Origin: a bacterium
GTDB taxonomy: Bacteria > UBP18 > UBA7526
Direction: 5' to 3'
Assembly (NCBI GenBank): GCA_030615855.1
Contig: JAUWYL010000009.1
Coordinates: forward strand, 1-38,512
DNA: 38,512 nucleotides
Each line of letters begins with the position of its first letter. Position 1 is the first letter of the stretch. Of this stretch, positions 3,203 through 37,787 are shown piece after piece. The position numbers and the translations under genes are program-made. Below the pieces are notes generated by a model that was not told the origin of the DNA, searched no databases, and saw nothing but the letters and a program-made list of their open reading frames with translations.

Positions 3203-3260
3203 ACACGGATTTCTTTATTCTGCCTACTACTTGGGATTAAATACACGGATTATCGCGGAT
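3203..3260. repeat. CACGGAT-type repeat arm downstream of the GxxExxY gene
   Basis: acacggat at 3203 and 3243, cgcggat at 3254. Confidence 0.85.
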
Positions 3261-3626
3261 TTAACCAAGAATCCTTCGTCTAATATCCAATTTTTCAGCA
3301 CCAAAGTTTACCAAGAAGCCTAATTTATAATTGGTCCCTTTCAGATAGTAATATAGTTGCTTCTCATAGACCTTAGGCATTTCGGGTACTGCTTTGATCT
3401 CAATAAGAATTTTATCTTCGATTACAAAATCTGGAACATATCTTCCAATACTTTTACCCTTGTAAGAAATTGATAATTGTGGCTCCTCCTTGAAAGAAAG
3501 ATTTCTTAACGTGAACTCTTTCACTAAAGCACGATGATAAATGACTTCTTTAAATCCTGGCCCTAAAGTATTATAGACCTCAAAGAAGGCTCCCCGAATT
3601 TTGTAGGTTAATTTTTCATACAACAT
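3261..3626 (-). CDS. GxxExxY protein (PD-(D/E)xK nuclease superfamily)
   Basis: GPGFKEVIY motif; PDFVIEDKILIEIK catalytic-type motif; LVNFG. Confidence 0.9.
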   Translation of the reverse strand: MLYEKLTYKIRGAFFEVYNTLGPGFKEVIYHRALVKEFTLRNLSFKEEPQLSISYKGKSIGRYVPDFVIEDKILIEIKAVPEMPKVYEKQLYYYLKGTNYKLGFLVNFGAEKLDIRRRILG

Positions 3627-3627
3627 T

Positions 3628-3667
3628 ATCCGTGTCTATCCGTGTTGTTATCCGTGTCTATCCGTGT
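3628..3667. repeat. ATCCGTGT x4 repeat arm upstream of the GxxExxY gene (inverted relative to 3203-3260)
   Basis: atccgtgtct atccgtgttgtt atccgtgtct atccgtgt. Confidence 0.9.
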
Positions 3668-4573
3668 TTAACTGTAGAAATCCATCAAGACCTTCTTCAG
3701 TTTCTCAACATTCTCTTCACTCATTGGTGATAAGGGAAGCCTTAATTCTGGGGTATCGAGTAGTCCCTGCAGGGCCATGGCAGTCTTCACTGGTATGGGA
3801 TTGGTCTCAATGAACATGGCCTTACATAAGGGAAAGATCTTATAGTGGACCTCTTTTGCCTTCTCTAAGTTTCCCTTATTAAACTCATCGACCAGGGCTG
3901 CCATCTCCGCCGGAACGAGGTTTGCCACCACAGAGATTACTCCCTTTCCTCCTAAGGCAAGCATGGGAAGGACGATAAAGTCATCCCCAGATATGAGGTC
4001 GAACTTATCTCCACAGAGTCCTACGATATCAGAAGCCTGCTTCAGATCGCCACTGGCCTCCTTTATGCCCACGATATTCTCTATCTTGGAGAGTTTGGCC
4101 ACCGTCTCGGGTAAGAGATTGACGCTTGTTCTTCCCGGAACATTATAGAGAACGATGGGAATATCCACCTCTTTAGCGATCTTCTCAAAGTGGAGATACA
4201 TCCCCTTCGGAGTGGGCTTATTGTAATAGGGGGTAATTATCAAGGCTCCATCTGCCCCAGCTTCTTTGGCATGCTTGGTCAAATTTAGTGCCTCCTCTGT
4301 ATTATTAGAGCCAGTTCCAGCGATTACCGGAACCTTCCGGGCCAGAGGCCCTTCCAGGCCGGAGGCCTTTCCCTTGGCCTCATCAATGACCACTTCCACT
4401 ACCTTCTCATGCTCCTCAAATGATAGGGTGGCACTCTCTCCCGTTGTTCCACAAGGGACAATAACATCCGTTCCATTCTTGATGTGGAAATCGACCAATT
4501 CCCTCAACTTCTTCTCATCCACCTTCCCCTCTTTAAATGGGGTAACTAAAGCCACCATAGAACCACTAAACAT
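3668..4573 (-). CDS. dapA: 4-hydroxy-tetrahydrodipicolinate synthase, with an 11-aa in-frame insertion
   Basis: GTTGES, YNVPGRT and GIKEASG motifs. Confidence 0.96.
   Translation of the reverse strand: MFSGSMVALVTPFKEGKVDEKKLRELVDFHIKNGTDVIVPCGTTGESATLSFEEHEKVVEVVIDEAKGKASGLEGPLARKVPVIAGTGSNNTEEALNLTKHAKEAGADGALIITPYYNKPTPKGMYLHFEKIAKEVDIPIVLYNVPGRTSVNLLPETVAKLSKIENIVGIKEASGDLKQASDIVGLCGDKFDLISGDDFIVLPMLALGGKGVISVVANLVPAEMAALVDEFNKGNLEKAKEVHYKIFPLCKAMFIETNPIPVKTAMALQGLLDTPELRLPLSPMSEENVEKLKKVLMDFYS
4333..4369. repeat. 33-bp palindromic element inside dapA
   Basis: CCTT direct repeats 33 bp apart; homologous to 18693-18725 and 24422-24458. Confidence 0.85.
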
Positions 4574-4590
4574 CCCTACACCTCCGTTTC

Positions 4591-4686
4591 AATGCAAATT
4601 GCAAAATTAACAGTCAGCAAGTCAAAGTTACTTATTCTCTCTTTTTCAATTTTGCATTGCTAATTTTGCATTTTTCATTTTGCACT
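4591..4686. repeat. Empty inverted short-repeat array (TGCAAA / TTTTGCA) between lysA and dapA
   Basis: aatgcaaattgcaaaa on the left; ttttgcat...ttttgcat...ttttgcac on the right. Confidence 0.7.
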
Positions 4687-4687
4687 G

Positions 4688-5956
4688 TTATATTTCTTCT
4701 CCTCTTATTAGGTCGCTGTAGTCTTCTCTTTTCCTAATGATGCGATATCTATCTTTTTTTACCAAAACTTCAGCCACTTTAGGTCGGGCATTGTAATTGG
4801 AAGACATACTGAAGCCATAGGCGCCAGCATCGAGAATGGCAAGTAAATCACCAGACTTTACTTCTGGTAGTTCCCTGTTTTTAGCGAAATAGTCTCCGCT
4901 CTCGCATACTGGGCCAACAATATCTACAGTAGTTCGGAGTTCGGAGTTCGTAGTTCGTAGTTTCTTGATGGAAATGATCTCGTGGTAGGCGTTATAAAGT
5001 GTGGGGCGGATGAGGTTATTCATTGCCGCATCGACAATAACAAAGGTTTTCTCTTTTGTCTTCTTGATATAAAGAACTTTTGTTACCAATATACCAGCAT
5101 CACCAATAATTGCCCTTCCTGGCTCAAGGATTATTCTATACTTCAATCTTTTAATTAAGGGTAACAACTTTTTAGCAAACTCCCCAGAAGTAGGTGCTTT
5201 CTCATCCTTTTTGTAACTTATTCCCAAACCTCCTCCAATATCCAGATACCTTAATTTAATTCCTTCTTTTTCTAATTCCTTTATCAGTTCAACAATTTTT
5301 TCTAAACTATCAACAAAGGGTTCTAATTCTGTAATCTGAGAGCCGATGTGCATATGGATTCCCATAGTCTCGATATTCTTTAGTTCTTCTGCTTTTTTAT
5401 AGGCTTCTTTCGCCCCCGATATATCGATGCCAAACTTACTCTTCGCCAAACCAGTAGAGATATGGGGATGGGTATTGGGATCAATATCTGGATTTATTCT
5501 CAAAGCAACGGATGCCTTTTTCTTTAATTTTCCTGCTATTTTATTAGTAAGTTCTAACTCTGGAATGGATTCCACATTGAGCATTAGGATATCACTCTTT
5601 AAAGCGTATTCAATCTCTTCTTGAGTTTTGCCCACTCCAGAGAAAACTATCTTCTTAGGATCTACTCCTACCTTTAATGCTTTGTAGAGTTCGCCTCCAG
5701 AAACGATATCTGCTCCTGCGCCCTGTTCCTTCAAAAGTTTGCAAATAGAGAGATTAGAGTTCGCCTTGTAGGAGTAGCAGATGAGATGGTCGATTTCCTT
5801 AAAAGCCTCATCAAAGGCTCGGTAATTATTCGCGATTCTCTTCTGACTATAGAGATAGAAAGGAGTCCCTACTTTTCTATCAACATCCTCGATTTTTACG
5901 TCCTCACAATATAATTCATTATCTCTGTAATCAAAACTTTTCATCACTGTAATCAT
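4688..5956 (-). CDS. lysA: Diaminopimelate decarboxylase
   Basis: YSYKAN, HMHIGSQ, GGG, EPGR, GPVCESGD and GAYG motifs. Confidence 0.96.
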   Translation of the reverse strand: MITVMKSFDYRDNELYCEDVKIEDVDRKVGTPFYLYSQKRIANNYRAFDEAFKEIDHLICYSYKANSNLSICKLLKEQGAGADIVSGGELYKALKVGVDPKKIVFSGVGKTQEEIEYALKSDILMLNVESIPELELTNKIAGKLKKKASVALRINPDIDPNTHPHISTGLAKSKFGIDISGAKEAYKKAEELKNIETMGIHMHIGSQITELEPFVDSLEKIVELIKELEKEGIKLRYLDIGGGLGISYKKDEKAPTSGEFAKKLLPLIKRLKYRIILEPGRAIIGDAGILVTKVLYIKKTKEKTFVIVDAAMNNLIRPTLYNAYHEIISIKKLRTTNSELRTTVDIVGPVCESGDYFAKNRELPEVKSGDLLAILDAGAYGFSMSSNYNARPKVAEVLVKKDRYRIIRKREDYSDLIRGEEI

Positions 5957-7293
5957 TTCTTTTTCACTGTCTCTTTTCCTTGGACAATGAGCCTCTTCAC
6001 ACTCTCCTTCGCTGTCCCACCCAAAGACTTCCGGGCAGCAATGCCCGCCTCTACTTTTATGGTCTCAAAGACATCCCGATCAAATAATTTAGAGTAGGTT
6101 TTAAAATCTTTCAAGGTTAAAGCATTCAAGCCCTTCTTCTTTTTGATGGTCTCTTTCACTAACTTACTCATTATCTGATGGGCCTTCCTGAAAGGCAAAC
6201 CCTTCTTCACTAAATAGTCTGCTAAATCGGTAGCCATAGAGAAGTCACCCTCCAGAAAAGCCAACATCCTCTTCTTATCTATCTTCATGGTATCGAGCAT
6301 CTGGGCATAGATGGATAGAGAATCCTTCAAGGTATCTACAGTATCGAATAGAGGAACTTTATCCTCCTGCATATCCCGATTGTAGGCTAAGGGTAAAGAC
6401 TTCATAGTGGTTAATAAACTCATCAGATTCCCATAGACCTTTCCCGTCTTTCCCCTTATGAGCTCACAGACATCCGGGTTCCTCTTCTGGGGCATGATGG
6501 AGGAGCCAGTGGTAAATGCTTCGGCAAGTTCGATAAAACCAAACTCCTTACTTGAGAAAAGGATGAGTTCCTCGCTTAACCTGGAAAGATGCATCATGAT
6601 TAGGGAAGCATGGGCTAAGAACTCAATAATAAAGTCCCTATCTGAGACAGCATCCATGCTGCTTGGGGCCACTTTGGAAAAGCCTAAGAGTCGGGCAGTA
6701 TATTCCCGGTCAATGGGATGGGAAGTTCCTGCTAAAGCAGCGGCTCCCAAGGGAGAGACATCCACCCGATCAAAGGTATTCAAAAGCCTCTCCCAATCCC
6801 TGTCGAGCATGAAGAAGTAGGCCATTATCCAGTGAGAGAATAGTATAGGCTGGGCATGCTGCAAGTGGGTATAACCAGGCATAACGACATCTATATTCTT
6901 CTCTGCTACTTTGAGAATACTCTTCTGCAAATTCCTGATTAACTTTGCAATCTCCTTTATTTCATCCCGCAAGAAGAGATGCATATCCAGAGTGATCTGG
7001 TCGTTTCGGCTCCGTCCAGTATGAAGCTTCGCTCCTATGTCCCCGATCTTCTCTATGAGCCTCTTCTCAATGTGGGTATGGATATCTTCCAAAGAAGGAT
7101 GAAACTCAAATTTTCCGGTTTTTATTTCCTTCTCTATCTCCTTCAAGGCTTTAACAATTATCTTCCCTTCAGAGTCGGCAATAATCTTACACTTGGTGAG
7201 CATCTTAACATGAGCAATGGAGCCCTGAATATCATACTTATAGAGCCTTTTGTCAAAGGAGATAGATTCCAAGAATTCCTCTATTTTTTTCAT
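5953..7293 (-). CDS. argH: Argininosuccinate lyase
   Basis: HTGRSRNDQ and GSSIMPQKRNPD motifs. Confidence 0.96.
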   Translation of the reverse strand: MKKIEEFLESISFDKRLYKYDIQGSIAHVKMLTKCKIIADSEGKIIVKALKEIEKEIKTGKFEFHPSLEDIHTHIEKRLIEKIGDIGAKLHTGRSRNDQITLDMHLFLRDEIKEIAKLIRNLQKSILKVAEKNIDVVMPGYTHLQHAQPILFSHWIMAYFFMLDRDWERLLNTFDRVDVSPLGAAALAGTSHPIDREYTARLLGFSKVAPSSMDAVSDRDFIIEFLAHASLIMMHLSRLSEELILFSSKEFGFIELAEAFTTGSSIMPQKRNPDVCELIRGKTGKVYGNLMSLLTTMKSLPLAYNRDMQEDKVPLFDTVDTLKDSLSIYAQMLDTMKIDKKRMLAFLEGDFSMATDLADYLVKKGLPFRKAHQIMSKLVKETIKKKKGLNALTLKDFKTYSKLFDRDVFETIKVEAGIAARKSLGGTAKESVKRLIVQGKETVKKK

Positions 7294-7294
7294 A

Positions 7295-8530
7295 CTATTT
7301 CTCCTTTGCCGCCTTTGGCGGCACCCCGCCCTTTGGCGGTGGCGCTATCTTTGCCTTTACCTTTAGGGGAAGACTTAAGATTTCTATGAAGCCCTTGGCC
7401 AATTTCTGATCGAAGATATCTCCTTTGCCATAGGTGGCCAGGGCCTGGCTATAGAGAGAATAAGGAGACTTTCGACCAACGACAATACAATCTCCTTTAT
7501 AGAGTTTGAGCCTCACGGTTCCTGTGACGTTCTTCTGGGTCTTTTCAATGAATTCATCCAGGGCCTTCTTTAAGGGAGAATGCCACATCCCGCCATAGAT
7601 GAGTTCGCTGTACTTCTTATCGACCAGTGCTTTGAACTCTAACGTCTGGCAGGTAAGGGTTAAATTCTCCATCTCCTTGTGGGCCAGATAAAGAATCCTT
7701 CCTGCTGGTGCCTCGTATATCTCCCTGGACTTTATTCCTACCACCCGAGATTCAATATGATCTACACGACCGACTCCATTCGCTCCCCCAATCTCATTCA
7801 ACTTAGCGATCAAATCTATTGGTTTATATTCTTTACCATCTATCTTCTTGGGAATCCCATCCTCAAAGTCGATCTCTAAGTAGGTAGGCTTATCCGGTGC
7901 TTTCTCTGGTGAAGTAGTCAATTGATAGATCTCCCCTGGCGGCTCCCTCCAGGGGTCTTCTAAAACACCACACTCGATAGAGACTCCCCAGAGATTCCTA
8001 TCAATACTGTAGGGAATCTCTTTGGTTGTCTTTAAAGGAACATTATGCTTCTTGGCATAATCCATCTCCTCTTCCCTGGTCTTTAGTTCCCATTCCCGAA
8101 CTGGAGCAAGAACCTTCATATCCGGGGCTAAGGCACTAATTGAGATCTCGAAGCGCACCTGGTCATTTCCCTTACCAGTGCAACCGTGTGCCACAGCATC
8201 CGCCTTCTCTTCCTTAGCCACTTCTACTAATGATTCTGCGATCAATGGTCGGGATAAAGCAGTAGCCAATAGATACTTATCCTCATAGATGGCATTGGCA
8301 CATAATCCCTTGAAGACAAAGTCTTTTACAAACCTTACCTTCAAATCCTTTACCACTACCTTCTCTGCCCCGATCTTAGCTGCTCTCTCTTTGGCATCCT
8401 CTAAGTCTTCTCCCTGTCCCAAGTCAGCTAAAAGAGCAATTATCGGAACCTTATACTTCTCCTGTAACCACTTCAAGATTACAGAGGTATCCAGCCCCCC
8501 AGAATAAGCCAGAACAATCTTTTTAATCAT
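7295..8530 (-). CDS. argG: Argininosuccinate synthase
   Basis: LAYSGGLDTS and HGCTGKGNDQVRFE motifs. Confidence 0.97.
   Translation of the reverse strand: MIKKIVLAYSGGLDTSVILKWLQEKYKVPIIALLADLGQGEDLEDAKERAAKIGAEKVVVKDLKVRFVKDFVFKGLCANAIYEDKYLLATALSRPLIAESLVEVAKEEKADAVAHGCTGKGNDQVRFEISISALAPDMKVLAPVREWELKTREEEMDYAKKHNVPLKTTKEIPYSIDRNLWGVSIECGVLEDPWREPPGEIYQLTTSPEKAPDKPTYLEIDFEDGIPKKIDGKEYKPIDLIAKLNEIGGANGVGRVDHIESRVVGIKSREIYEAPAGRILYLAHKEMENLTLTCQTLEFKALVDKKYSELIYGGMWHSPLKKALDEFIEKTQKNVTGTVRLKLYKGDCIVVGRKSPYSLYSQALATYGKGDIFDQKLAKGFIEILSLPLKVKAKIAPPPKGGVPPKAAKEK
7307..7342. repeat. Double-hairpin palindromic element in the 3' end of argG
   Basis: tgccgcc-ttt-ggcggca followed by ccccgcc-cttt-ggcggtgg; homolog at 19710-19742. 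Confidence 0.8.
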
Positions 8531-9459
8531 TATTTTCCTCCCATCAAAAGTACTAAGATTGCTTTTTGGACGTGGAGCCGATTCTCTGCCTGGTCGAAGA
8601 CCACCGAATGCGGCCCATCCATCACCCCATCCGTAATCTCCTCTCCCCGATGGGCAGGGAGACAGTGCATGACAATACAGTCCTTCTTTGCCTTTGAAAC
8701 CAGCTCTTCGTTCACCTGATAGGGATAGAAGATGCTCCTTCGCTCTGCGGCTTCTTCCTCCTTCCCCATACTTGCCCAGACATCGGTGTAGATAACATCT
8801 GCATCCTTTACCGCCTCAGATGGGTCTTCAAGGATGTTTATCTTTGTACTACTTATCATGGCCTCACCGCTTGCCCTCCTCACCACTGTCTCATTCGGTT
8901 GATAGCGAGAGGGGCAGGCGAGAGAGAGTTCTATCCCCATCTTGGCCGCCCCATAGCACCAGGAGTTGGCAACATTATTCCCGTCACCGACATAGGCCAC
9001 CTTTAGTTTCTTGAGCCTTCCCTTCTTCTCTCTTATGGTATAGAGATCAGATAACACCTGGCAGGGGTGAAGAAGATCAGATAAGCCATTTATCACTGGA
9101 ATGGTACTATACTTAGCCAAATCCTCTACATCCTGATGGTCATAGGTCCTGATCATTATCCCGTCCACATAACGGGAGAGGGTAAGTGCCGTATCCTTAA
9201 TCGTCTCTCCCCTTCGCAGTTGCAGATCCTGGGCACTCAAGAATAGAGCATATCCTCCCAACTGGTACATTCCGGCCTCGAAGGAAACCCTGGTCCTGGT
9301 AGAGGGCTTCTGAAAGATCATGGCCAATGTCGTATCCAATAACAGAAGATGCTCCTTCCTCTTCTTATGCAATTTTTTTAACTTCTTTGTCAGTTTGAAT
9401 ATCTGATTAATCTCTTTTGGCGTCAAATCAGCAATAGAGATTAAATCTTTATGTTTCAT
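8530..9459 (-). CDS. argF: Ornithine carbamoyltransferase
   Basis: KPSTRTR, HPCQ, SMG and HCLP motifs. Confidence 0.96.
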   Translation of the reverse strand: MKHKDLISIADLTPKEINQIFKLTKKLKKLHKKRKEHLLLLDTTLAMIFQKPSTRTRVSFEAGMYQLGGYALFLSAQDLQLRRGETIKDTALTLSRYVDGIMIRTYDHQDVEDLAKYSTIPVINGLSDLLHPCQVLSDLYTIREKKGRLKKLKVAYVGDGNNVANSWCYGAAKMGIELSLACPSRYQPNETVVRRASGEAMISSTKINILEDPSEAVKDADVIYTDVWASMGKEEEAAERRSIFYPYQVNEELVSKAKKDCIVMHCLPAHRGEEITDGVMDGPHSVVFDQAENRLHVQKAILVLLMGGK

Positions 9460-9496
9460 TGTTTTCTCCTTGGATCATAAGTTAACAAGAGACGTT

Positions 9497-9527
9497 ATGC
9501 GTTGATGCGTTTATGTGTTTATGCGTT
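9497..9527. repeat. ATGCGTT x4 arm (8-nt period) downstream of the four-helix-bundle gene
   Basis: atgcgttg atgcgttt atgtgttt atgcgtt. Confidence 0.85.
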
Positions 9528-9903
9528 AAGTCATTTTGCATTTTGTCAAATATCTAATGTAACCGTTAAGCACTTTACGCGTTCTAATACACAGATTATA
9601 TAATTTTTGACACTCTTTCAAAGGAGCCTGCTTTAGATCTCTGGCGGCAATAATATGGTTTCTGGTTTCTTCTAACGAACCCCGGGCTATACGACAAGAA
9701 TGAATATTCTCCTGCCAGTGGTATCTGCCGAATCCTTCGGCTATATTAGCCCCCACAGAGGAAGAAGAACGCTTCAGCTGTGCTATGCGATTGTATTTTT
9801 CATCTTCTGGAAGATATTTGACAAACTTATACACTTCTAACATTACTTGATGGGCTAATTTCCAAGCATCCAGATCTTCAAAATTGTCTATCTTTCCTAG
9901 CAT
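9526..9903 (-). CDS. Four-helix-bundle protein (23S rRNA-intervening-sequence protein family)
   Basis: FEDLDAWK, QLKRSSSSVGANIAEGFGR and IARGSLEE motifs. Confidence 0.9.
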   Translation of the reverse strand: MLGKIDNFEDLDAWKLAHQVMLEVYKFVKYLPEDEKYNRIAQLKRSSSSVGANIAEGFGRYHWQENIHSCRIARGSLEETRNHIIAARDLKQAPLKECQKLYNLCIRTRKVLNGYIRYLTKCKMT

Positions 9904-9917
9904 TCTTCTCTCCTTTT

Positions 9918-9945
9918 CGCATCAACGCATTTCGCATTAACGCAT
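9918..9945. repeat. AACGCAT arm upstream of the four-helix-bundle gene (inverse of 9497-9527)
   Basis: cgcatc aacgcat tt cgcatt aacgcat; overlaps the argD stop codon. Confidence 0.8.
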
Positions 9946-11232: not shown

Positions 11233-11233
11233 T

Positions 11234-12092: not shown

Positions 12093-12130
12093 CCACAGAT
12101 TAACACAGATTAATTACAGATACTCACAGA
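12093..12130. repeat. CACAGAT x4 repeat arm
   Basis: cacagattaa cacagattaat tacagatact cacagat. Confidence 0.8.
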
Positions 12131-12165
12131 TCATTAAGCGGGTGACTCGGCAGATTTCTGTACTT

Positions 12166-12732: not shown

Positions 12733-12860
12733 ACACGGATTTCTTACTTCACTTACTGCTTGAGTTTAAAAACACGGATTACACGATGCACTTCGTTGGC
12801 ATCGTAGGGTGCTTGAATAAATCAGGCAACGCCACGGATAAAATCTTAGACGCAGATTCA
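12733..12860. repeat. CACGGAT-type arm containing the ~50-bp unit and a GATGC hairpin
   Basis: acacggat x2, cacggat, cgcagat; hairpin acgatgc...gcatcgt at 12783-12805. Confidence 0.75.
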
Positions 12861-14658: not shown

Positions 14659-14689
14659 ATCTGCGTTGATATCTGCGATAATCTGCGTC
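14659..14689. repeat. ATCTGCG x3 repeat arm immediately 3' of tRNA-Glu
   Basis: atctgcgttgat atctgcgata atctgcgtc. Confidence 0.75.
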
Positions 14690-14690
14690 T

Positions 14691-14768
14691 TGGTAGCGCG
14701 TAGGGGATTCGAACCCCTGATCTCCGCCTTGAGAGGGCGGCGTCTTAAACCAGCTGGACTAACGCGCC
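14691..14768 (-). tRNA. tRNA-Glu (CTC)
   Basis: GGCGCGT...CCGCC-CTCTCAA-GGCGG...GGTTCGAATCC...ACGCGCT-ACCA cloverleaf with encoded CCA. Confidence 0.96.
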
Positions 14769-16937: not shown

Positions 16938-17011
16938 TGGCTGCGGGACCAGGATTCGAACCTGGGCGACGAGATCCAGAATCTCGCATCCTACCGCTAG
17001 ATGATCCCGCA
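16938..17011 (-). tRNA. tRNA-Gln (CTG)
   Basis: TGCGGGA...CGAGA-TTCTGGA-TCTCG...CCAGGTTCGAATCCTGG-TCCCGCA-GCCA. Confidence 0.96.
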
Positions 17012-17037
17012 AATAAGCTTCACTTCGTTCAACAAAA

Positions 17038-17102
17038 CGCGGATACAAACAGATTGCTGCGGATTCAGACGAATATAATGTCTGTGTGCATCCGTTAATC
17101 TG
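17038..17102. repeat. Degenerate empty CGGAT/ATCCG inverted array in the tRNA leader
   Basis: cgcggat, acagat, gcggat followed by tctgtg, atccgt, atctgc. Confidence 0.55.
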
Positions 17103-19840: not shown

Positions 19841-19940
19841 ACGCGGATAATCACAGATTTTCTACGGATAATCGCGGATAAATCCGTGCTAATCCGTGTT
19901 TAATATACCCAAGCAGTAAGTAAAACGAAAAAATCCGTGT
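19841..19940. repeat. Empty CACGGAT/ATCCGTG inverted array between argC and argJ
   Basis: Four left units, then atccgtg units including the ~50-bp unit. Confidence 0.85.
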
Positions 19941-22122: not shown

Positions 22123-22189
22123 ACCACGGATTTCACAGATTCTCACGGATTAATACTTAAAAATCTGTCCAATCCGTCTAATCCGTGGT
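22123..22189. repeat. Empty CACGGAT/ATCCGTG inverted array
   Basis: cacggat, cacagat, cacggat followed by atctgt, atccgt, atccgtg. Confidence 0.85.
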
Positions 22190-30343: not shown

Positions 30344-30352
30344 CTTACATTC

Positions 30353-30388
30353 AACGGGCAAACCGGCTAACCGGCCAACTGGCTAACC
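30353..30388. repeat. 8-mer tandem array AAC(C/G/T)GGC(T/A/C)
   Basis: aacgggca aaccggct aaccggcc aactggct aacc. Confidence 0.75.
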
Positions 30389-30395
30389 TATCCCC

Positions 30396-31935: not shown

Positions 31936-31954
31936 CTAATCAAATCTTCCTTCC

Positions 31955-32040
31955 ATACACGGATGATCACGGATTTTTTACGGATGATCACGGATTAAAT
32001 CCGTGCTAATCTGTGCCTTTTAATCTGTGCCTATCCGTGT
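31955..32040. repeat. Empty CACGGAT/ATCCGTG inverted array (4+4 units)
   Basis: Read directly; centre GGATTAAATCC. Confidence 0.9.
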
Positions 32041-32042
32041 AA

Positions 32043-32258
32043 TTAATCAAATTTTGATGCCTCAAGATGTTTCTTAATCTCATCCCTCAAGAGGCCGACG
32101 AGCTCCTCATCCGTTTGCTTGATCTTCTTCCAGATCTCCTGACAGGATGGGCATTCAGCAGCATCTTCGATGCACTTGTCATAGCGGGCAAGTCCTCTTG
32201 ACTTTATGGCCAGGGCTGAGATCAGATTGTAGTTAAGGTTCTTTAACATCTTTCTCAC
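32043..32258 (-). CDS. Small hypothetical helical protein (half-ferritin-like, CxxC)
   Basis: NYNLISAL...YDKCIEDAAECPSCQEIWKKI. Confidence 0.65.
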   Translation of the reverse strand: MRKMLKNLNYNLISALAIKSRGLARYDKCIEDAAECPSCQEIWKKIKQTDEELVGLLRDEIKKHLEASKFD

Positions 32259-32530
32259 CTCCCTTCTATAGGCTTCATCCCTTCTCTGGCAAAGATGTTT
32301 ACAATATAGTCTTTGCTTATACTTATCCTTTCCACCCTATATTTCCAGGTCTCATGAGCCCGGATAGCAGTGACGGTAGCATCGACTACGACAACAAATT
32401 TCTTGGCGGGATTGAGGGTTACGAAGTCAGGCAGACTTCGGCAACCGGGGGGAAGGGTTACCCAGCCCTCCACCTTACAATTTGGGAGATAGATCACAAT
32501 CTCCTTCTTCTCTCCTTCAATCTCTTCCAT
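32255..32530 (-). CDS. Small hypothetical protein
   Basis: ORF with AGGAGG RBS, coupled to the downstream gene by a GTGA overlap. Confidence 0.7.
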   Translation of the reverse strand: MEEIEGEKKEIVIYLPNCKVEGWVTLPPGCRSLPDFVTLNPAKKFVVVVDATVTAIRAHETWKYRVERISISKDYIVNIFAREGMKPIEGR

Positions 32531-32547
32531 TTCTCATTCCTCCTTTG

Positions 32548-32609
32548 ATACACGGATAATCACTGATTCTTTACGGATGGTCACGGATTAAATCCGTGTT
32601 GATCCGTGT
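32548..32609. repeat. Empty CACGGAT/ATCCGTG inverted array
   Basis: 47/51 identical to 31955-32005; 39 bp identical to 37731-37769. Confidence 0.9.
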
Positions 32610-32610
32610 T

Positions 32611-33909
32611 TTAGATTTTTGCGGGATGGGCGATCCTTCCTTTAAGGGCACTGGCAGCAGCAATTGCTGGATTGGAGAGGTAGACCTCTGATTTAGGATG
32701 GCCCATACGGCCTTTAAAGTTCCTGTTTGTGGTTGCTAGGGCCTTTTCCCCTTCTGCTAAGACCCCCATATGGCCACCGAGACAGGGACCACAGGTAGGG
32801 GTAGAAACCACCCCTCCTGCCTCTAAGAATATCTCGGTCAATCCTTCCTTTACTGCCTGAAGATAGATATTCTGTGTAGCAGGAATGATGATGAGTCTTA
32901 TATAAGAGGGGATTTTCCTTCCCTTCAAAACTTTGGCCGCAATTCTCAAATCCTCCATCCTTCCATTGGTGCAGGAGCCGATGACTACCTGATCTAAAGG
33001 GATATTTCCTACTTCACTCACTGGTTTGGTATTTGAAGGTAGATGGGGAAGGGCAACCTGAGGTTCGATCTTGGAGCAATCGTACTTTCTTATCTCACAA
33101 TAATTGGCATCGGGATCGCTCGTTGGCAGTGAACAGTGAACAGTGTCCGCCAGAGGCGGATCAGCCTTCGGCTGAAACAGTGAACAGTGTTTCTTTGCAT
33201 ATTCGAGAGTGATTTTGTCGGGAGCAATAATTCCTGACTTTGCTCCGGCCTCGATGGCCATATTACACATACTGAATCTAGAATCCATGGAAAGGCTGGA
33301 GACCGCCTCTCCGGTAAATTCCATGGTTTTATATAGGGCGCCATCTACCCCAATATCACCAATAGTGTAGAGGATGAGGTCCTTCCCACTCACCCATTTG
33401 TTTAGTTTTCCACGATAGATGAATCTTATTGTCTCTGGAACCTTGAACCAGAGTTTCCCAGTAATCATTACTGCTGCTAAGTCTGTCGAACCCACGCCAG
33501 CAGAAAAAGCACCCAAAGCACCATAGGTACAGGTATGACTATCTGCACCAATGATTAAATCCCCGGGCCCTACAATTCCCTGTTCAGGAAGGAGAGCATG
33601 CTCTATCCCCATCCTCCCCACATCAAAGTAATATTTAAGATTCTGTTCTTTAGCAAAGTCCCTTAAGATCTTCGCTTGTTGGGCAGAAGGAGCATCCTTA
33701 TTGGGAGTGAAGTGATCGGGAACTAAGACGACTTTGCTTCTGTCAAAGACCTTCTTTACCCCGGACTTTCTAAACTCCTCTATAGCCAGGGGGGCGGTGA
33801 TATCATTCCCTAAAGCAATATCTACCTTGGCCTCAATGAACTCCCCTGGCTCCACCCTCTTCTTTCCCGCATGGGCAGCCAGTATCTTCTCTGTTATGGT
33901 AAGACCCAC
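32611..33909 (-). CDS. leuC: 3-isopropylmalate dehydratase large subunit, with a repeat-derived insertion
   Basis: [16 protein letters not shown] and CGPCLG motifs. Confidence 0.95.
33127..33189. repeat. CAGTGAA x5 array with a nested 30-bp double hairpin, inside leuC
   Basis: tccgccagaggcgga + tcagccttcggctga at 33146-33175. Confidence 0.88.
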
Positions 33910-33942
33910 AATAAATCCTTCGGATTAAAAGTTAACAGTTTA

Positions 33943-34050
33943 CCCCGTAAGACTTTTTAGCTAAAAACTTTTTCAGTCAGTTATATAATTATTATTCACG
34001 CTACTGAACCCTCAGAATTGGCAATAACTTTTCTGAAAAGTCCAACGGGG
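33943..34050. mobile_element. MITE, 108 bp, TIR CCCCGT(AA/TG)GACTTTT, flanked by TTTA/TTTA
   Basis: 13/15 TIR and a 4-bp direct repeat; sits inside a heptamer array. Confidence 0.75.
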
Positions 34051-34141
34051 TTTACAGTGTACGGTTCACAGTAAAAAATTTAGAAAGGAAAGACTGTTAG
34101 ATATCGCTTTACTAACTGGTTACTGTAAACTATTGCTATAC

Positions 34142-35656
34142 TTATCGCCTCCGATAGACGAGACGATTCAGGGCATTGATATAGGCCTTGGCTGAAGCCT
34201 CAATGACATCTGTTGAAGCACCATGGCCAGTAATGGTCTCTCCTTTACTCTCTATCTTTACGATGACCTCTCCTAAGGCCTCCTTACCACCGGTCACTCC
34301 CCTTAGAGCATAGTCAACTAATCTGCACTTTATCTTAATAATCTTATCTATCGCTTTGTAGCAGGCATCTACTGGACCATCACCAGTGGCCGTCTCTTCA
34401 ATTATCTTGCCTTTTTTCTTTATTCTAATTCTCGCCTCTGGAGTGACCTTTGTTCCGCTTCTAATCTCCATATCCTCTAAGATAAAGGTATCGGGAATCA
34501 TACGGACCTCGTCCTCAATGATGGCCTCCAGGTCCTCATCAAAGACCTCTTTCTTCTTATCTGCTAAACTCTTGAATCGGACGAAGGCCTTATTCAAGTC
34601 TTCGTTAGAAAGCTCAGTATAGCCCAGTTCCTCCAATCTCTTCCTGAAGGCATGCCTTCCCGAGTGTTTCCCCAGGACCAACTTGGTCCCGGCAATGCCT
34701 ACCGACTGGGGGGTCATGATCTCATAGGTGATCCTCTTTGCCAATACCCCATGCTGATGGATCCCTGCCTCATGGGCAAATGCATTGGCACCCACGATGG
34801 CCTTATTGGGCTGAACCAAAATCCCGGTAAGACCACTTACTAATCTTGACGTCTTATAGATCTCCTTGGTCTTTATTCCGGTTACTTTATTGAAAGTATC
34901 TTTCCTGGTCCTCAGGGCCATAACGATCTCCTCTAATGAGGCATTCCCGGCTCTCTCCCCAATGCCGTTTATGGTGCACTCCACCTGGGTAGCACCATTC
35001 AAGATGGCTGCTAAGGAGTTGGCCACTGCCAGGCCTAAGTCATTGTGGCAGTGGATGCTTATTACTGCCTGGCCGATATTGGGAACCTCTTGAGTTATTC
35101 CTCTAATTAATTTTCCAAACTCTACTGGCGTAGCATAGCCCACGGTATCGGGAATGTTGACTGTCGTTGCTCCGGCATCGATTACTGCCTCTACTACTTG
35201 ATATAAGAATTGGGGCTCTGTCCTTGAGGCATCCTCTGGAGAGAATTCAACATCATTGGTAAACTTCTTGGCATACTTCACCCCTTCTACAGCAAGCCTT
35301 AAGATTTCCTCCTTGGCCTTTTTTAGTTTATACTTCATATGAATCTTTGAGGTGGCTAAGAAGACATGGATCCTGGGCTTCTTAGAATACTTTACCGCAT
35401 TCCAGGCCCTTTGTATATCCTCCTTCTTGGCCCTTGCCAATCCAGTGATGATGGGCCCTTTCACTTCCTTGGCGACAAGCTTTACTGCCTCAAAGTCACC
35501 GGGTGAGGAGATGGGAAAGCCGCCCTCAATGATATCCACCCCTAATCTTGCGAGCTGCTTGGCAATCTCTAACTTCTCCTGGATATTCAAACTCGCCCCT
35601 GGGGATTGTTCTCCATCTCTCAGGGTAGTATCAAAAATCAATATCCGCTCAGCCAT
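34142..35656 (-). CDS. leuA: 2-isopropylmalate synthase
   Basis: [20 protein letters not shown] and LGKHSGR motifs. Start moved to ATG 35656. Confidence 0.96.
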
Positions 35657-35679
35657 CTCTTTTCTCCTTATAATTAATA

Positions 35680-35765
35680 CACTGATTAGCACTGATTCTA
35701 TTATACGGATTAGCACTGATTTAATCTGTGCTCATCTGTCTCTTTCAATCCGTGCTCATCCGTGC
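35680..35765. repeat. Empty CACTGAT/ATCCGTG inverted array; overlaps the ilvC stop
   Basis: Four left and four right units. Confidence 0.88.
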
Positions 35766-36754
35766 TTTTTTATGAAGGGCATCATGCTGCGTAGTTCCTT
35801 GCCCACCTTCTCTATTAAGTGCTTCTTCTCCCTCTCTCTCAGTTCATTGAACTTCGGGCACCCCTTTTCATTCTCAGCGATCCATTCCTTAGCAAAGGAG
35901 CCGTCTTTAACTTCAGATAGTATCTTCTTCATCTCGTCTCGAACTGCCTGAGTAATGACTCTCTTTCCTCTGGTAAGATCGCCATATTCTGCGGTATCCG
36001 AGACGGAGTATCTCATCCAAGTAATTCCTCCTTCATAGATGAGGTCGGTGATGAGTTTTAGCTCATGTAAACATTCGAAGTAGGCGATCTCTGGCTGGTA
36101 TCCTGCTTCAACTAAGGTGTCGAAGGCAGATTTAATGAGCTCGCTTACTCCTCCACAGAGGATGACCTGCTCCCCGAAGAGGTCGGTCTCTGTCTCCTCA
36201 GTGAAGGTGGTCTCGATTACTCCCGCCCGGGTGCAACCGATCCCCTTAGCATAGGCCAAGGCGATATCCTTCGCCTTTCCCGTATAATCCTGCTCCACAG
36301 CAACCAGGGCTGGGGTCCCTTTCCCTTCAGTAAACATTCTTCTCACTAAATGGCCTGGCCCCTTGGGAGCAATCATGAAGACATCGATATTCTTGGGAGG
36401 AACGATCTCTTTGAACCTAATATTGAAGCCATGGGAAAAGGCCAAAGCATTCCCTTCCTTTAAATGGGGTTCAATATCCTTCTTATATACCTTACCTTGA
36501 GCGGTATCTGGTATCAGAATCTGGATGATATCTGCCTCCTTCGCTGCTTGAGCACAAGGAACTGGCTTAAAGCCATGTTTTGCTGCCAGTTGATAATTAT
36601 CTGTTCCTTCCACTTCACTCACTATGACATCGAGTCCTGAATCCCTCAGGTTTTGGGCCTGGGCATGACCCTGTGAACCATAGCCAATGATGGCGATTCT
36701 TTTCCTTTTCAAGAGATCCAAATTAGCATCCTTCTCATAATAGACTTTTGCCAT
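35756..36754 (-). CDS. ilvC: Ketol-acid reductoisomerase
   Basis: GYGSQG, APKGPGH and [10 protein letters not shown] motifs. Start moved to ATG 36754. Confidence 0.97.
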
Positions 36755-36777
36755 TCCATACCTCCCTTCGGTCGATG

Positions 36778-36815
36778 CACTGATTAGCACCGATTACTAC
36801 GGATTAGCACTGATT
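36778..36815. repeat. CACTGAT-type arm (x4) downstream of the second GxxExxY gene
   Basis: cactgattag caccgatta ctacggattag cactgatt. Confidence 0.88.
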
Positions 36816-37200
36816 AGCCATAAATTTTTCGTTTTACTTCCAGTCTTCTGGCTCCGAAGTTTGCTAATAGAACCAGTCTATATTTGGAGCCCCTAACATA
36901 GTAATAAATCTGATCCAGCATTGTTTTTGCTATGGCAGGAACCGCTTTTATCTCAAGGATTACTTTATCATCTATGATGAAATCAGGTTTATAGATACCT
37001 ACTGTTTCTCCCCGATAGGTTACTTTAAGTACCTTTTCTGTTTTAAATGGTATTTTTAGATGTTTAAGTTCAATGGCTATAGCATTATGGTAGACTGTTT
37101 CCTTATGCACCGGACCTAATGCTTTATGAATCTCATACAAGGCCCCTCTTATTTTATATGTCAAACCTTCATATAATAGTTGTCGTTTTTCTGTGCTCAT
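36814..37200 (-). CDS. GxxExxY protein (PD-(D/E)xK nuclease superfamily)
   Basis: GPVHKETVY and PDFIIDDKVILEIK motifs; paralog of 3261-3626. Confidence 0.9.
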   Translation of the reverse strand: MSTEKRQLLYEGLTYKIRGALYEIHKALGPVHKETVYHNAIAIELKHLKIPFKTEKVLKVTYRGETVGIYKPDFIIDDKVILEIKAVPAIAKTMLDQIYYYVRGSKYRLVLLANFGARRLEVKRKIYG

Positions 37201-37228
37201 CCGTTACTCAATCCGTGCTAATCCGTGT
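37190..37228. repeat. ATCCGTG-type arm (x4) upstream of the second GxxExxY gene; contains its ATG
   Basis: tctgtgctc atccgttactca atccgtgcta atccgtgt. Confidence 0.88.
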
Positions 37229-37232
37229 CTAT

Positions 37233-37715
37233 TTATTTGCTGCCCTTAGGCAGGGCGATCTTGCCCGTGCGACTCAAGGTCTTTATGCCAAAGGGTCTTA
37301 AGAGATCTAAAATAGTTTGGATCCTATCCTCTTCTCCCACGATTTCGATGGTTATCGTCTTCTCTCCCACGTCAGCGATCCTGGCCTCGGGAAAGTTATT
37401 GACGACCTGCAGGATCTGGGGTTTGGTTCCCTTTGTTAGCGCGATCTTGACCAATAATAGCTCTCTTGCGATGGGCTTCTCCCCCACGAAGTCAGCGATT
37501 TTGATGACATCGATTAGTTTATGGAGCTGCTTCGTCACCTGTTCTAAGACCCGGTCATCTCCCTCCACAACTAAGGTCATTCTTGAAGTATCCGGGTTCT
37601 CTGTCTCCCCCACTGCCAGAGAATTGATATTGAATCCCCTTGCGCTGAATAGCCCAGAGATCCTTGCCAGAACCCCCGGTTTATTCTCTACCAAAACATT
37701 AATGATATGCTTCAT
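37233..37715 (-). CDS. ilvN: Acetolactate synthase small (regulatory) subunit
   Basis: VENKPGVLARISGLFSARGFNI and SRTG motifs. Confidence 0.95.
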   Translation of the reverse strand: MKHIINVLVENKPGVLARISGLFSARGFNINSLAVGETENPDTSRMTLVVEGDDRVLEQVTKQLHKLIDVIKIADFVGEKPIARELLLVKIALTKGTKPQILQVVNNFPEARIADVGEKTITIEIVGEEDRIQTILDLLRPFGIKTLSRTGKIALPKGSK

Positions 37716-37729
37716 TCTTCACCTCCGGT

Positions 37730-37787
37730 GCACGGATAATCACTGATTCTTTACGGATGGTCACGGATTTAATCCGTGCTCATCTGT
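37730..37787. repeat. Empty CACGGAT/ATCCGTG inverted array
   Basis: Near-identical to 32551-32598. Confidence 0.9.

Follow-up and report, generated by a model that had tools for sequence, protein, structure and literature searches.

A GxxExxY nuclease gene between mirrored repeat arms: a proposed mobile element of a kind not yet described

A REP-associated tyrosine transposase (RAYT) is a Y1 HUH enzyme whose gene is flanked by inverted short repeats. Each repeat (REP) is a single GC-rich hairpin, variants are genome- and clade-specific and lie near gene ends, and palindromic doublets that lack a gene (REPINs), numbering from tens to hundreds, are found mostly between genes. Multiple subterminal binding sites, inverted at both ends, occur in Tn7, Mu and the plant CACTA/Ac elements, with MITEs as gene-less derivatives, and I-Ssp6803I is an example of the PD-(D/E)xK homing endonucleases that are free-standing or intron-borne. 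The elements described here lie in a stretch of 38,512 nt, the window (GCA_030615855.1, contig JAUWYL010000009.1, positions 1 to 38,512; GTDB Bacteria; UBP18; UBA7526). They resemble REP/REPIN systems in that one or a few protein genes are flanked by an inverted repeat that is also present without a gene, in genome- or clade-specific variants near gene ends. They differ in that the protein is a ~120-aa PD-(D/E)xK nuclease and not a Y1 HUH transposase, for which reason membership in the RAYT family was rejected; each arm comprises 3-4 heptamer units in tandem, with a period of 8-10; the ORF fills the centre without spare sequence; and a single genome carries several diverged gene copies, every one having an arm type of its own. 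With Tn7, Mu, CACTA/Ac and MITEs they share several short repeats inverted at both ends and gene-less derivatives that outnumber autonomous copies, but the whole element is ~450 nt, has no DDE or other known transposase, and offers one 5-bp candidate target-site duplication. As with PD-(D/E)xK homing endonucleases, a small nuclease gene is centred in an otherwise uninterrupted site, filled and empty alleles occur, and a sharp identity boundary resembles a conversion tract; here, however, the putative "site" is a multicopy palindromic repeat instead of a unique conserved gene, there is no intron or intein, and fold matches of the protein model are generic only (Z at most 7.6).

In 23S rRNA intervening sequences (IVSs), a small S23p ORF occupies the loop of a stem formed by terminal inverted repeats, and a sporadic distribution suggests horizontal transfer (PMC4990558). 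These too place a small ORF between inverted repeats, and one gene of the window (9526-9903) belongs to the same protein family (S23p, PF05635) and is framed likewise. Our elements, in contrast, lie between protein-coding genes of amino-acid operons and not in rRNA helices, their arms are tandem unit arrays, the GxxExxY protein is unrelated, and the RNA-pairing signature was not found.

An earlier note on this DNA had pointed to CACGGAT-type arms, and the positions it gave were borne out. The window holds 32 copies of CACGGAT on both strands, against 2.2 expected (100 dinucleotide shuffles: mean 2.20, maximum 6). The units form period-10 arrays, mostly of 4 units, arranged as convergent inverted pairs (Table 1). 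The motif proved to be broader than CACGGAT, a degenerate YRCNGAT that also takes the forms CACAGAT, CGCGGAT, CACTGAT, TACGGAT and CGCAGAT, and modules of ~33 nt and ~50 nt occasionally interrupt the series. A spacing of about one helical turn holds for this lineage, with its period of 10, but is lineage-specific; periods elsewhere range over 8-10, so helical phasing is not strict. Arms do hug stop codons inside operons, the first unit beginning 1-5 nt past the stop codon of the upstream gene (in transcript orientation) at dapA, leuC, argC, ilvN, ilvC and orf71, and an ACAGAT unit 3 nt past that of ilvB. A count across the window's own genome (G000) gave 252 YRCNGAT arrays (141 two-unit, 38 three-unit, 69 four-unit, 3 five-unit and 1 six-unit) against ~6 in the control, in which three order-3 Markov genomes together yielded 17 two-unit arrays. 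Polarity is fixed: forward-then-inverted junctions of adjacent arrays number 38, in 38 elements (including one "+-+"), with a centre of 0-3 nt in 20, and the opposite order occurs once only, within the "+-+" element. Every class of intergenic region harbours array elements, none being avoided. The genome contains many further tandem-unit palindrome families, mostly without a gene, and "private" arm types mostly have 0-4 gene-less copies each.

Table 1. Repeat arms, cassettes and gene-less elements of the window
Feature	Positions	Strand	Description
Cassette 1 arm, gene's 3′ side	3204-3260		CACGGAT (3204), ~33-nt module, CACGGAT (3244), CGCGGAT (3254); adjoins ORF stop codon
GxxExxY / PDDEXK_3 gene 1, 121 aa	3261-3626	-	Between dapA (3668-4573) and dapB (2386-3246)
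Cassette 1 arm, gene's 5′ side	3628-3666		4 ATCCGTG units, spacing 10, 12, 10 nt
Four-helix-bundle cassette	9490-9945	-	Gene 9526-9903, PF05635/TIGR02436; period ~8
Solo arm, argB/next gene	12094-12131		4 CACAGAT/TACAGAT units; G001 site naive (20 nt)
Solo arm	12734-12839		Units split by 33-nt module and ~50-nt module bearing a hairpin
Solo arm	14659-14687		3 ATCTGCG units, 4 nt 3′ of tRNA-Glu (14691-14768, minus strand)
Degenerate arm	17037-17066 (about)		CGCGGAT, ACAGAT, TGCGGAT; 26 nt upstream of tRNA-Gln (16938-17011, minus strand)
Gene-less, argJ/argC	19842-19939		4 forward and 2 inverted units, ~33-nt module, 1 inverted unit
Gene-less, upstream of rplM	22125-22187		Missing at orthologous G002 site (naive)
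Gene-less, leuD/small ORF	31958-32039		4 + 4 units, 3-nt centre
Gene-less, abuts leuC stop	32551-32608		4 + 2 units, centre TAA
Gene-less, ilvC/leuA	35680-35764		CACTGAT-type arm and ATCCGTG arm
Cassette 2 arm, gene's 3′ side	36778-36814		CACTGAT, CACCGAT, TACGGAT, CACTGAT; last unit overlaps stop codon
GxxExxY / PDDEXK_3 gene 2, 128 aa	36814-37200	-	Between ilvN (37233-37715) and ilvC (35756-36790)
Cassette 2 arm, gene's 5′ side	37199-37227		ATCCGTT (overlaps start codon), ATCCGTG at 37211 and 37221
Gene-less, ilvB/ilvN	37731-37778		4 forward units, centre TTA, 1 exact and 1 degenerate inverted unit

Both GxxExxY genes of the window are, as had been described, enclosed by inverted arms with start and stop codons abutting or inside them, and each ORF fills the whole gap between its two arms. 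The 5′ arm of cassette 1 begins 1 nt after the ORF start codon and ends 1 nt short of the dapA stop. Forward and inverted arrays frame 6/6 GxxExxY genes in G000, and the cassettes show no transposase gene. Assignment to the PD-(D/E)xK superfamily was upheld by matches of genes 1 and 2 to PF13366 (E = 4.7e-37 and 3.8e-30) and TIGR04256 (1.5e-37 and 3.7e-31), and both proteins keep the PD...E-I-K motif. Across 52 homologues D66 and K78 never vary, and conservation of E76 is at least 90%. The AF2 model of gene 1 (pLDDT 96.4) has a restriction-endonuclease-like fold, with tRNA-splicing endonucleases as weak matches (Z 5.3-6.1).

The six gene-less arm pairs and three single arms listed in the earlier note were all found, the feature at 17037 being a degenerate arm, and the identity of 32551-32589 with 37731-37769 is exact over 39 nt. 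Relatives (G001-G005) were compared. At the argJ/argC element the G002 ortholog carries CGCWGAT units. Upstream of rplM, AGATA on either side of the extra segment in G000 is the one 5-bp candidate target duplication; in two other naive/occupied pairs no clear duplication was seen. The CACTGAT-type arm at ilvC/leuA is confined to G000 and G002, and the ATCCGTG arm is also in G004 and G005. The site of the solo arm at 12734-12839 is naive in G001 and in one of two G002 contigs, and solo 4-unit arms beside stop codons are conserved across genera.

A parallel cassette carries a four-helix-bundle gene. The arm on the gene's 5′ side has 4 ATGCGT-type units and overlaps the argD stop, the arm on the 3′ side has 4 ACGCAT-type units, and the cassette is missing at this junction in G001, G002, G004 and G005. 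Genes of this 23S-IVS/Avd-like family are unrelated to GxxExxY and have the same framing with other units, so the framing is wider than GxxExxY. Cassettes were also seen nested in other arm pairs (C30:13711, C2:23475 and ilvC|ilvN of G002).

Beyond this lineage, 40 of 75 GxxExxY loci from very diverse phyla had inverted arms above the 95th percentile of a shuffled-partner null (median 30 vs 16), and 35 did not pass this test; CACNGAN is the core common to the arms across phyla. At least two CACNGA upstream with at least two TCNGTG downstream were found at 21 loci, and the opposite arrangement at 1. In 11/23 loci the array begins within -7 to +6 nt of the stop codon, and 14/21 diverse loci have an array immediately before the start codon, at most 25 nt away. 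Planctomycete loci repeat the upstream array in direct orientation on both sides and have no inverted partner. The association of arms with the gene, which the earlier note had proposed to check, held across 151 genomes, mostly one per family (39 GxxExxY-positive, 112 negative). Triple-unit arrays occurred in 26/39 positive and 17/112 negative genomes (Fisher p = 4e-9), being absent from 13 of the positives, and at least four arrays in 19/39 and 1/112 (p = 2e-12); with the window's own family left out, 21/33 and 16/33 positives remained. These counts are inflated by other tandem repeats in G061, G075 and G136 (38 control hits in G136), and the reversed-pattern control gave 0 in most genomes. 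One negative genome, G144, has 24 arrays. On a quick protein tree of few columns, with clade and arm labels set by the analyst, arm-type labels change 17 times against 43.4 in shuffles (0/200 as low), and on this evidence arm type follows protein clade rather than host phylum. The hosts of the CACAGAG clade include Acidobacteriota, Planctomycetota, Chloroflexota, Betaproteobacteria and a Methanoperedens archaeon, and the six GxxExxY genes of G000 represent three clades, each with clade-typical arms.

Filled and empty alleles, also proposed for checking, are present at both junctions of the window. At the dapA-dapB junction G000 and G004 have the gene, and G001, G002 and G005 lack it; 1-2 units remain in these "empty" alleles, which therefore provide no clean pre-insertion site for filled cassettes. 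At ilvN-ilvC the gene is present in G000 and G005, and the alleles of G002 and G003 are gene-less. Between G000 and G004, cassette 1 is 96.7% identical (12/366 mismatches) and its 5′ arm matches at 41/41 nt, whereas identity is 86.9% for dapB and 87.0-89.4% for dapA and falls off at the arms; pieces from 4 metagenome runs (4 studies) likewise give ~96-97.5% for the cassette and ~87-92% for the flanks. Judged by these identities, cassette 1 was recently exchanged between genomes. The genomes are recombination mosaics, leuA being 98% identical between G000 and G002 and its neighbours 90%, so a high-identity tract alone is no proof of element-driven transfer. The ilv cassette has diverged like its flanks (88.1% vs 87.3-87.8%) and thus looks vertically inherited. 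Array subfamily ratios vary by genome. At three junctions orthologous elements have CACGGAT-type units in G000 and CGCWGAT-type units in G002, and both G001 and G002 contain GxxExxY genes with CGCAGAT arms.

These observations could have other sources. The gene may be a passenger, with tandem-unit palindromes arising and spreading through another agent (a transposase of another kind, or slippage and template switching in quasi-palindromes) and small selfish ORFs landing or staying in hairpin centres. The many other, mostly gene-free unit families and the framing of two unrelated protein families mean that some general process could create such arms; the nested cassettes, the few gene-less copies of most private arm types, and G144 point the same way. 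Yet GxxExxY arms share their core across phyla while the arms of four-helix-bundle genes are built of other units, arm type goes with protein clade even inside one genome, arrays are strongly linked to gene presence, and the cassettes have no visible transposase gene; we regard a passenger as unlikely. A domesticated, now immobile system, in which GxxExxY, with or without an active nuclease, would bind intergenic arrays sequence-specifically for a host function (operon punctuation, nucleoid organisation or autoregulation) with the gene among its own operators, seems quite unlikely. It would suit the arrays placed just upstream of start codons even without an inverted partner, the conserved solo arms, the vertical look of the ilv cassette and the presence of arrays in all intergenic classes. 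It fits poorly with filled and empty alleles in close relatives, the recent exchange of one cassette, a patchy distribution (39/151 genomes) with phyla mixed in the protein tree, and a conserved catalytic triad, and the different array families at the same junction by genome indicate rapid turnover and no conserved regulon.

The remaining alternative places the element in RNA, as for 23S rRNA intervening sequences: the arms would pair in the operon transcript into a long stem with the ORF as its loop, excision or regulation would fall to RNase III or to the encoded nuclease, and arrays would be kept for stem formation. G:U-type mismatches on the sense strand show no excess over A:C-type, at 42 vs 40 in 40 GxxExxY loci and 63 vs 71 in 51 four-helix-bundle loci, and the better fold is on the sense strand in 7/13 cassettes and on the antisense in 6/13, which tells against the mRNA stem suggested in the earlier note. 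The arms of 13 cassettes can nonetheless pair (duplex energies -11.6 to -56.7 kcal/mol), start and stop codons in or beside them mean that pairing would occlude translation signals, the weak fold matches to tRNA-splicing endonucleases count in favour of this reading, and the similarly framed four-helix-bundle family is the ORF of 23S IVS stem-loops cut by RNase III (PMC4990558). Set against this are the direct arrays of Planctomycete loci, solo arms conserved by themselves, a cross-phylum unit core and clade-tracking arm type that a mere stem would not need, and a search of Rfam that matched no family. We consider action in RNA likewise quite unlikely.

Architecture, genome-wide amplification, conservation across phyla, array-gene co-occurrence, arm type following protein clade, filled/empty polymorphism and one recently exchanged cassette are established by sequence comparison, and the reading we favour, at somewhat better than an even chance, is a compact selfish or mobile cassette acting in DNA, a nuclease with cognate arrays and many gene-less copies. 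The logic would be that of RAYT and REPIN with another protein family: the earlier pairing of an autonomous gene with non-autonomous arm pairs agrees with the co-occurrence, the filled and empty alleles and the identity of cassette 1, and kinship with RAYTs falls away. A cassette would have 3-4 short units (core CACNGAN, period 8-10) on one side, a ~120-aa GxxExxY ORF exactly filling the centre, and the same array inverted on the other. The nuclease may recognise the unit of its own arms, several protomers lining each arm, and cut at or between arm pairs; a filled copy could then convert a gene-less arm pair to a filled one in a homing-like manner, the arms doubling as recognition sites and short homology. 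Gene-less arm pairs would be non-autonomous copies, with dispersal, replacement and homogenisation all happening in trans. That the protein binds and cuts, which way and by what chemistry the element moves, and how gene-less copies arrive at new sites are inferences. Taken together, the nuclease gene and its mirrored repeat arms most probably make up a mobile element of a kind not described before.

In the window, two GxxExxY ORFs each fill the interval separating a forward arm from an inverted one, and their start and stop codons lie inside the innermost repeat units or 0-2 nt away from them. The arrays are runs of a degenerate unit, YRCNGAT, recurring every 10 nt; a forward run is followed by an inverted run, and this polarity is fixed. 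CACGGAT occurs 32 times in the window, against 2.2 expected. The window, an entire 38.5-kb contig from a genome of 1.375 Mb and 44% G+C, holds a long amino-acid biosynthesis cluster (ilvB-ilvN-ilvC-leuA-leuC-leuD-leuB-asd ... argC-argJ-gltX ... argB-argD-argF-argG-argH-lysA-dapA-dapB-folB-folK), and every one of its genes lies on the minus strand. An earlier note on this DNA had placed the ORFs and arms, reported a 39-nt identity between copies and read a PD...EIK motif in both ORFs; coordinates, identity and motif were all confirmed in the sequence.

Features of the window, in order of position (nt)
Feature	Position	Strand	Setting
Conserved ~33-nt module	3211-3243, 12741-12772, 19899-19932		between two CACGGAT units
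GxxExxY ORF, cassette 1	3261-3626	-	dapA-dapB
Four-helix-bundle element	9490-9945		argD/argF interval
Four-helix-bundle gene (TIGR02436, PF05635)	9526-9903	-	argD/argF interval
~50-nt module with its own hairpin	12780-12832		between two units
Arms adjoining tRNA genes	14659-14768, 16938-17066		4 nt 3′ of tRNA-Glu, 26 nt 5′ of tRNA-Gln
Other tandem-unit palindromes	21000-21190		
Gene-less element	22125-22187		upstream of rplM
Gene-less arm pair	31958-32039		beside the small ORFs
Two small overlapping ORFs (71, 91 aa)	32043-32530		leuC/leuD interval
Gene-less arm pair	32551-32608		beside the small ORFs
High-identity patch	34116-36300		leuA-ilvC
GxxExxY ORF, cassette 2	36814-37200	-	ilvN-ilvC

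The source genome (G000) contains 347 copies of CACGGAT and 252 arrays of at least two units, and three order-3 Markov genomes used as a control gave 17 two-unit arrays in total. Full arms preferentially have four units (69 arrays); just 4 exceed that length. Under a strict pattern the arrays form 208 clusters. Adjacent arrays meet in 38 forward-then-inverted junctions and in one of the opposite order, which lies within a single '+-+' element; the junction centre is 0-3 nt in 20 of the 38, most commonly AA or TAA. Eighty CACGGAT clusters lie elsewhere in the genome. Intergenic clusters (142 tandem, 13 divergent, 3 convergent) showed no clear shift from the background, in which 1149 of 1291 neighbouring pairs are co-directional, in a test based on crude ORF calls, which partly account for the 48 of 208 clusters scored as coding. 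No Rfam family matched the arms, the only Rfam matches in the window being two tRNAs. Many other tandem-unit palindrome families, mostly gene-less, are also present, with units such as GGTTACG, TTTACGG, GGGTTAG, CGGTTAA, GACTATT and GTAAAAA, in the window and on G000 contigs C33, C10, C22, C20 and C27.

All six GxxExxY genes of G000 are framed, by units that differ among genes: CACGGAT in three, mixed CAACAGAT/CACGGAT, ACGAAGA and CACTGAAGA in the others. The framing is real and far broader than the window. We surveyed 80 GxxExxY loci from species-representative genomes, 75 of which had enough flank to score, by comparing the 120 nt upstream with the reverse complement of the 120 nt downstream and setting the threshold at 95% of mismatched partners. 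The inverted-arm score exceeded it in 40 of 75 loci (median 30, versus 16 for the null), and 35 failed the test. Hosts include Cyanobacteriota, Bacteroidota, Acidobacteriota, Planctomycetota, Chloroflexota, Thermodesulfobacteriota, Nitrospinota, Patescibacteria, Verrucomicrobiota, Pseudomonadota and one Methanoperedens archaeon. A core, CACNGAN, is common to the units (CACGGAT, CACAGAT, CACAGAG, CACAGAA, CACGGAA, CACGAAA), and their polarity is consistent: CACNGA upstream with TCNGTG downstream, at least two of each, was found in 21 loci and the reverse arrangement in 1. Contrary to the inverted pattern, four planctomycete loci repeat the upstream array downstream in direct orientation. When all 1267 ORFs were scanned de novo for inverted flanks, ordinary genes lying between two gene-less palindromes confounded the result, which was discarded; cassette 1 fell outside the top 60 because the 33-nt module interrupts its 3′ arm.

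In planctomycete loci L050, L076, L061 and L062 the upstream module (TAGCCACAGAG ... three CACAGAG units ... ATG) reappears in direct orientation past the stop codon, and in L076 the downstream copy carries a start codon, as though tandem cassettes had lost a gene. In L047, L074, L078, L095 and other loci of the CACAGAG clade, TAG precedes the outermost unit at both ends (TAGCCACAGAG ... CTCTGTGGCTA), and in 6 loci the first downstream unit overlaps the ORF stop codon by 7 nt, so stop codons at the borders may be supplied or exploited by the element.

Co-occurrence was measured by running the TIGR04256 profile and a triple-unit pattern on the same 151 genomes, nearly all of different families. 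At least one array was present in 26 of 39 GxxExxY-positive genomes and in 17 of 112 negative ones, 14 of these 17 being single matches; at least four were present in 19 and 1, respectively (Fisher p = 4e-9 and 2e-12, with little change when the organism's own family was excluded). The expectation in the earlier note that arm motif and gene would be associated across genomes was thus borne out. Thirteen positive genomes had no triple-unit array. The backwards-read control was zero in most genomes and non-zero in G044, G063, G086, G101, G135 and G136 (38 control matches in G136), and most array matches in G061 and G075 belong to other tandem repeats. One 99% complete genome, G144, has 24 triple-unit CACNGA arrays although no GxxExxY protein was matched in it at E up to 1e-10, which makes it a natural case for studying arrays where the gene is missing. 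In some genomes 77-183 arrays accompany 1-3 GxxExxY genes, so that the gene-less excess is not special to the G000 lineage.

Arm type follows the protein tree. On a maximum-likelihood tree built quickly from 131 columns of 81 proteins, arm class changed 17 times against 43.4 for shuffled labels, none of 200 shuffles going so low; this clustering is inflated by near-copies and depends on four author-set classes and a tree with many unresolved forks. All 18 CACAGAG loci fall within a single 21-member clade drawn from five bacterial phyla plus the archaeon; 5 of 7 CACGAAA loci form one clade, to which the G000 gene at C30:58337 belongs; and the CACGGAT genes of G000 cluster with genes from Omnitrophota, Elusimicrobiota and Planctomycetota. 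This argues that arms travel or co-evolve with the gene and are not merely host-supplied hairpins.

The two window ORFs match PF13366 (127.4 and 105.1 bits; cut-off 22) and TIGR04256 (128.5 and 107.9 bits; cut-off 35) over their full length. Across 52 aligned sequences the G..E..Y motif is retained, with no variation at D66 or K78 and with conservation of at least 90% at E76. An AlphaFold (AF2) model (pLDDT 96.4) has a minimal restriction-endonuclease-like fold, and motif and modelled fold together place the proteins in the PD-(D/E)xK superfamily, as predicted nucleases. The best fold matches were the nuclease domains of BpuSI, DrdV, TT1808, BglII, Cas4 and Hjc (Z 6.4-7.6), with tRNA-splicing endonucleases ranking lower. 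These matches are generic (type IIG/IIL, DUF820-like, Cas4, lambda exonuclease, Hjc; Foldseek best E 1.4e-3, VIA-align best Z 7.6), and neither Foldseek nor VIA-align gave an informative nearest neighbour, and a PDB sequence search returned 0 matches at E up to 1. Our literature search for GxxExxY, PDDEXK_3, TIGR04256 or PF13366 found passing mentions and no dedicated study: the family is a 'function unknown' row in a table of PMC3424549, and a neighbour gene within a reverse-transcriptase survey. Among the matches listed it found no paper linking PDDEXK proteins with intergenic inverted-repeat miniature elements and, in main texts outside subscription journals, no description of tandem-unit arms around GxxExxY or four-helix-bundle genes.

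Filled and empty alleles, which the earlier note had proposed to seek in relatives, were found at both cassette sites among five genomes of the same family (G001-G005). At dapA-dapB, G000 and G004 carry the gene, whereas G001, G002 and G005 have a spacer of 30-38 nt in which one or two units persist beside the dapA stop. ilvN-ilvC is filled in G000 and G005; G002 carries there a 145-nt gene-less 4+4 element of CGCTGAT/ATCTGCG units with a second small palindrome nested at its centre, and G003 an unrelated 113-nt inverted repeat. At both sites the ORF splits its putative target, the pattern of a homing gene.

The dapA-dapB cassette is 96.7% identical between G000 and G004, and its 5′ arm 41/41, compared with flanking identities of 86.9% in dapB and 87.0-89.4% in dapA. 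In 50-nt bins identity is 90-100% over 3236-3685 and 82% in the adjoining bin on each side. The contrast recurs in contigs of four metagenomes, each from a different study, where cassette pieces are ~96-97.5% alike and flank pieces ~87-92%. In one run (X2), two contigs join 3199/3204 to 3668/3669 with the cassette absent. A contig from another (X5) linking 3260 to 3628, exactly minus the ORF, was not counted: its depth is 2.1 and its shorter side only 30 nt, and it could represent a gene-less element at another site. The ilv cassette has diverged equally with its flanks (88.1%). The leuA-ilvC patch is 98% identical between G000 and G002 (contig C67), versus 90-95% in neighbouring genes; homologous-recombination mosaics are common in this lineage, a caution when the dapA-dapB tract is read as element-driven transfer.

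Gene-less elements turn over among these genomes. At argJ|argC, on the leuC side and at ilvC|ilvN, the G002 elements share the G000 layout but consist of CGCWGAT units, and at argC|rpsI and argF|argD the array family differs in every genome. CACGGAT and CGCWGAT pairs number, respectively, 82 and 65 in G000, 23 and 36 in G001, 19 and 113 in G002, 1 and 3 in G003, 48 and 55 in G004, and 22 and 15 in G005; GxxExxY genes with CGCAGAT arms are present in G001 and G002. The site upstream of rplM is naive in G002; in G000 it contains ~78 additional nt, within which lies a gene-less element, and AGATA flanks this addition on each side.

The arrays also hold smaller modules. The ~33-nt module, which contains a ...TTACTTACTGCTTGGG-like sequence, yields genome-wide spacings of 39-41 nt and is duplicated in the dapB-side arm of G004. 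The ~50-nt module, also found on G000 contig C30 near 126850, is present in G000 and G004 and missing from the orthologous G002 element, which indicates a nested insertion in the arm. The two small ORFs between leuC and leuD match no family above cut-off and are flanked on both sides by gene-less arm pairs; the leuD|leuC gap is 3 nt in G001, the same two ORFs occur in G002 and one in G003, and the pair resembles a further module that was inserted and is carried between arm pairs. In G002 the lemA-like|htpX junction exists in two versions (C19, C85; L215, L219), arm-occupied (110 nt) and naive (25 nt), reflecting either strain heterogeneity in the bin or duplication.

The framing is not peculiar to GxxExxY, although the kind of unit is specific to each protein family. 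The four-helix-bundle gene in the window, of the Avd-like '23S rRNA intervening sequence protein' family, lies between four ATGCGT-type and four inverted ACGCAT-type units of period ~8, the first of which overlaps the argD stop; the cassette is found at argF|argD only in G000, the gene being absent there from G001, G002, G004 and G005. All 7 such genes of G000 with both flanks visible are framed by an array and its inverse, with a unit private to each. In other phyla 51 of 77 loci, from a search seeded with a single protein because the family alignment was too divergent, scored above the null 95th percentile, with units mostly of the AGTNAT/GTCAT/GTTAT kind and period 7-8. On G000 contig C44 near 17100 a four-helix-bundle cassette follows a tRNA-like 3′ end, and GTTACTA, the arm unit of one such gene, has 23 clusters elsewhere. 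The family has been described as an ORF-in-stem-loop intervening sequence cut by RNase III (PMC4990558) and as resembling Avd (PMC10053308).

We lean towards reading the PD-(D/E)xK nuclease and its cognate arrays as an autonomous/non-autonomous pair acting on DNA, with putative binding and cleavage and a putative route of spread; three rivals are live. An RNA-stem element would draw on arm pairing, predicted at -11.6 to -56.7 kcal/mol. The sense strand folds better in only 7 of 13 cassettes, showing no bias, and aligned arm positions carry no sense-strand excess of G:U-type over A:C-type mismatches (42 vs 40 for GxxExxY, 63 vs 71 for four-helix-bundle genes) in a test insensitive to weak bias. 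The mRNA-stem variant in the earlier note gained no support from these comparisons. Together with conserved solo arms, the direct planctomycete arrays and the cross-phylum unit core, they point to arms that would serve sequence recognition on DNA rather than a selected mRNA stem. A passenger-gene model and a domesticated binding system are the other two.

Among known systems, the comparison with RAYT/REPIN made in the earlier note holds for its logic, a gene between inverted copies of a repeat that is dispersed gene-less in G000, and fails for the protein: RAYT is an IS200/IS605-like Y1 (HUH) transposase, whereas the window proteins match PF13366 and TIGR04256 alone. A MITE or cut-and-paste transposon would share the inverted arms; AGATA upstream of rplM is a possible 5-bp target duplication judged against naive G002, and the naive/occupied pairs at argB|next gene and lemA-like|htpX are ambiguous, with no clear duplication. 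The cassettes resemble homing endonuclease genes in their filled and empty alleles and in the gene-less arm pairs with 0-3-nt centres; the 96.7-100% identity tract confined to the dapA-dapB cassette, against ~87% flanks, would be only indirect evidence of cleavage and repair copying, both putative here. On the favoured reading the cassette would work like a homing gene with multicopy targets, without belonging to that family. Known 23S rRNA intervening sequences, unlike these cassettes, sit in a 23S rRNA helix and not between protein-coding genes.

A broader and distinctly speculative reading, to which we give rather little weight, is that GxxExxY and the unrelated four-helix-bundle (S23p/Avd-like) proteins might be engines of an unrecognised, very widespread super-class of mini-elements. 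A protein of ~120 aa would read its own tandem 'word' (CACNGAN at period 8-10, or AGTNAT-like at period 7-8), one protomer per unit, and mirrored arrays would serve self-copying and the seeding and homogenising of hundreds of gene-less arrays. If so, many 'orphan' intergenic tandem-unit palindromes of compact genomes and the ORF-bearing 23S intervening sequences would share one mechanism, and the unit-protein pairs would be a natural set of small, re-targetable sequence readers.

For GxxExxY (PF13366/TIGR04256), a large multi-copy family without known function, the analysis provides a testable role: it would act as nuclease in a small cassette, the cognate arrays of which are spread through intergenic spacers of many phyla, with up to 183 arrays in one genome. 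If this is confirmed, a new protein family would join the few known to generate and sustain interspersed repeats in bacteria, some of the intergenic 'junk' within essential operons would be accounted for as a class, and the long-standing question of 23S rRNA intervening sequences that contain ORFs would be tied to the same architecture. It would also supply small sequence-specific DNA readers whose specificity apparently varies by clade.
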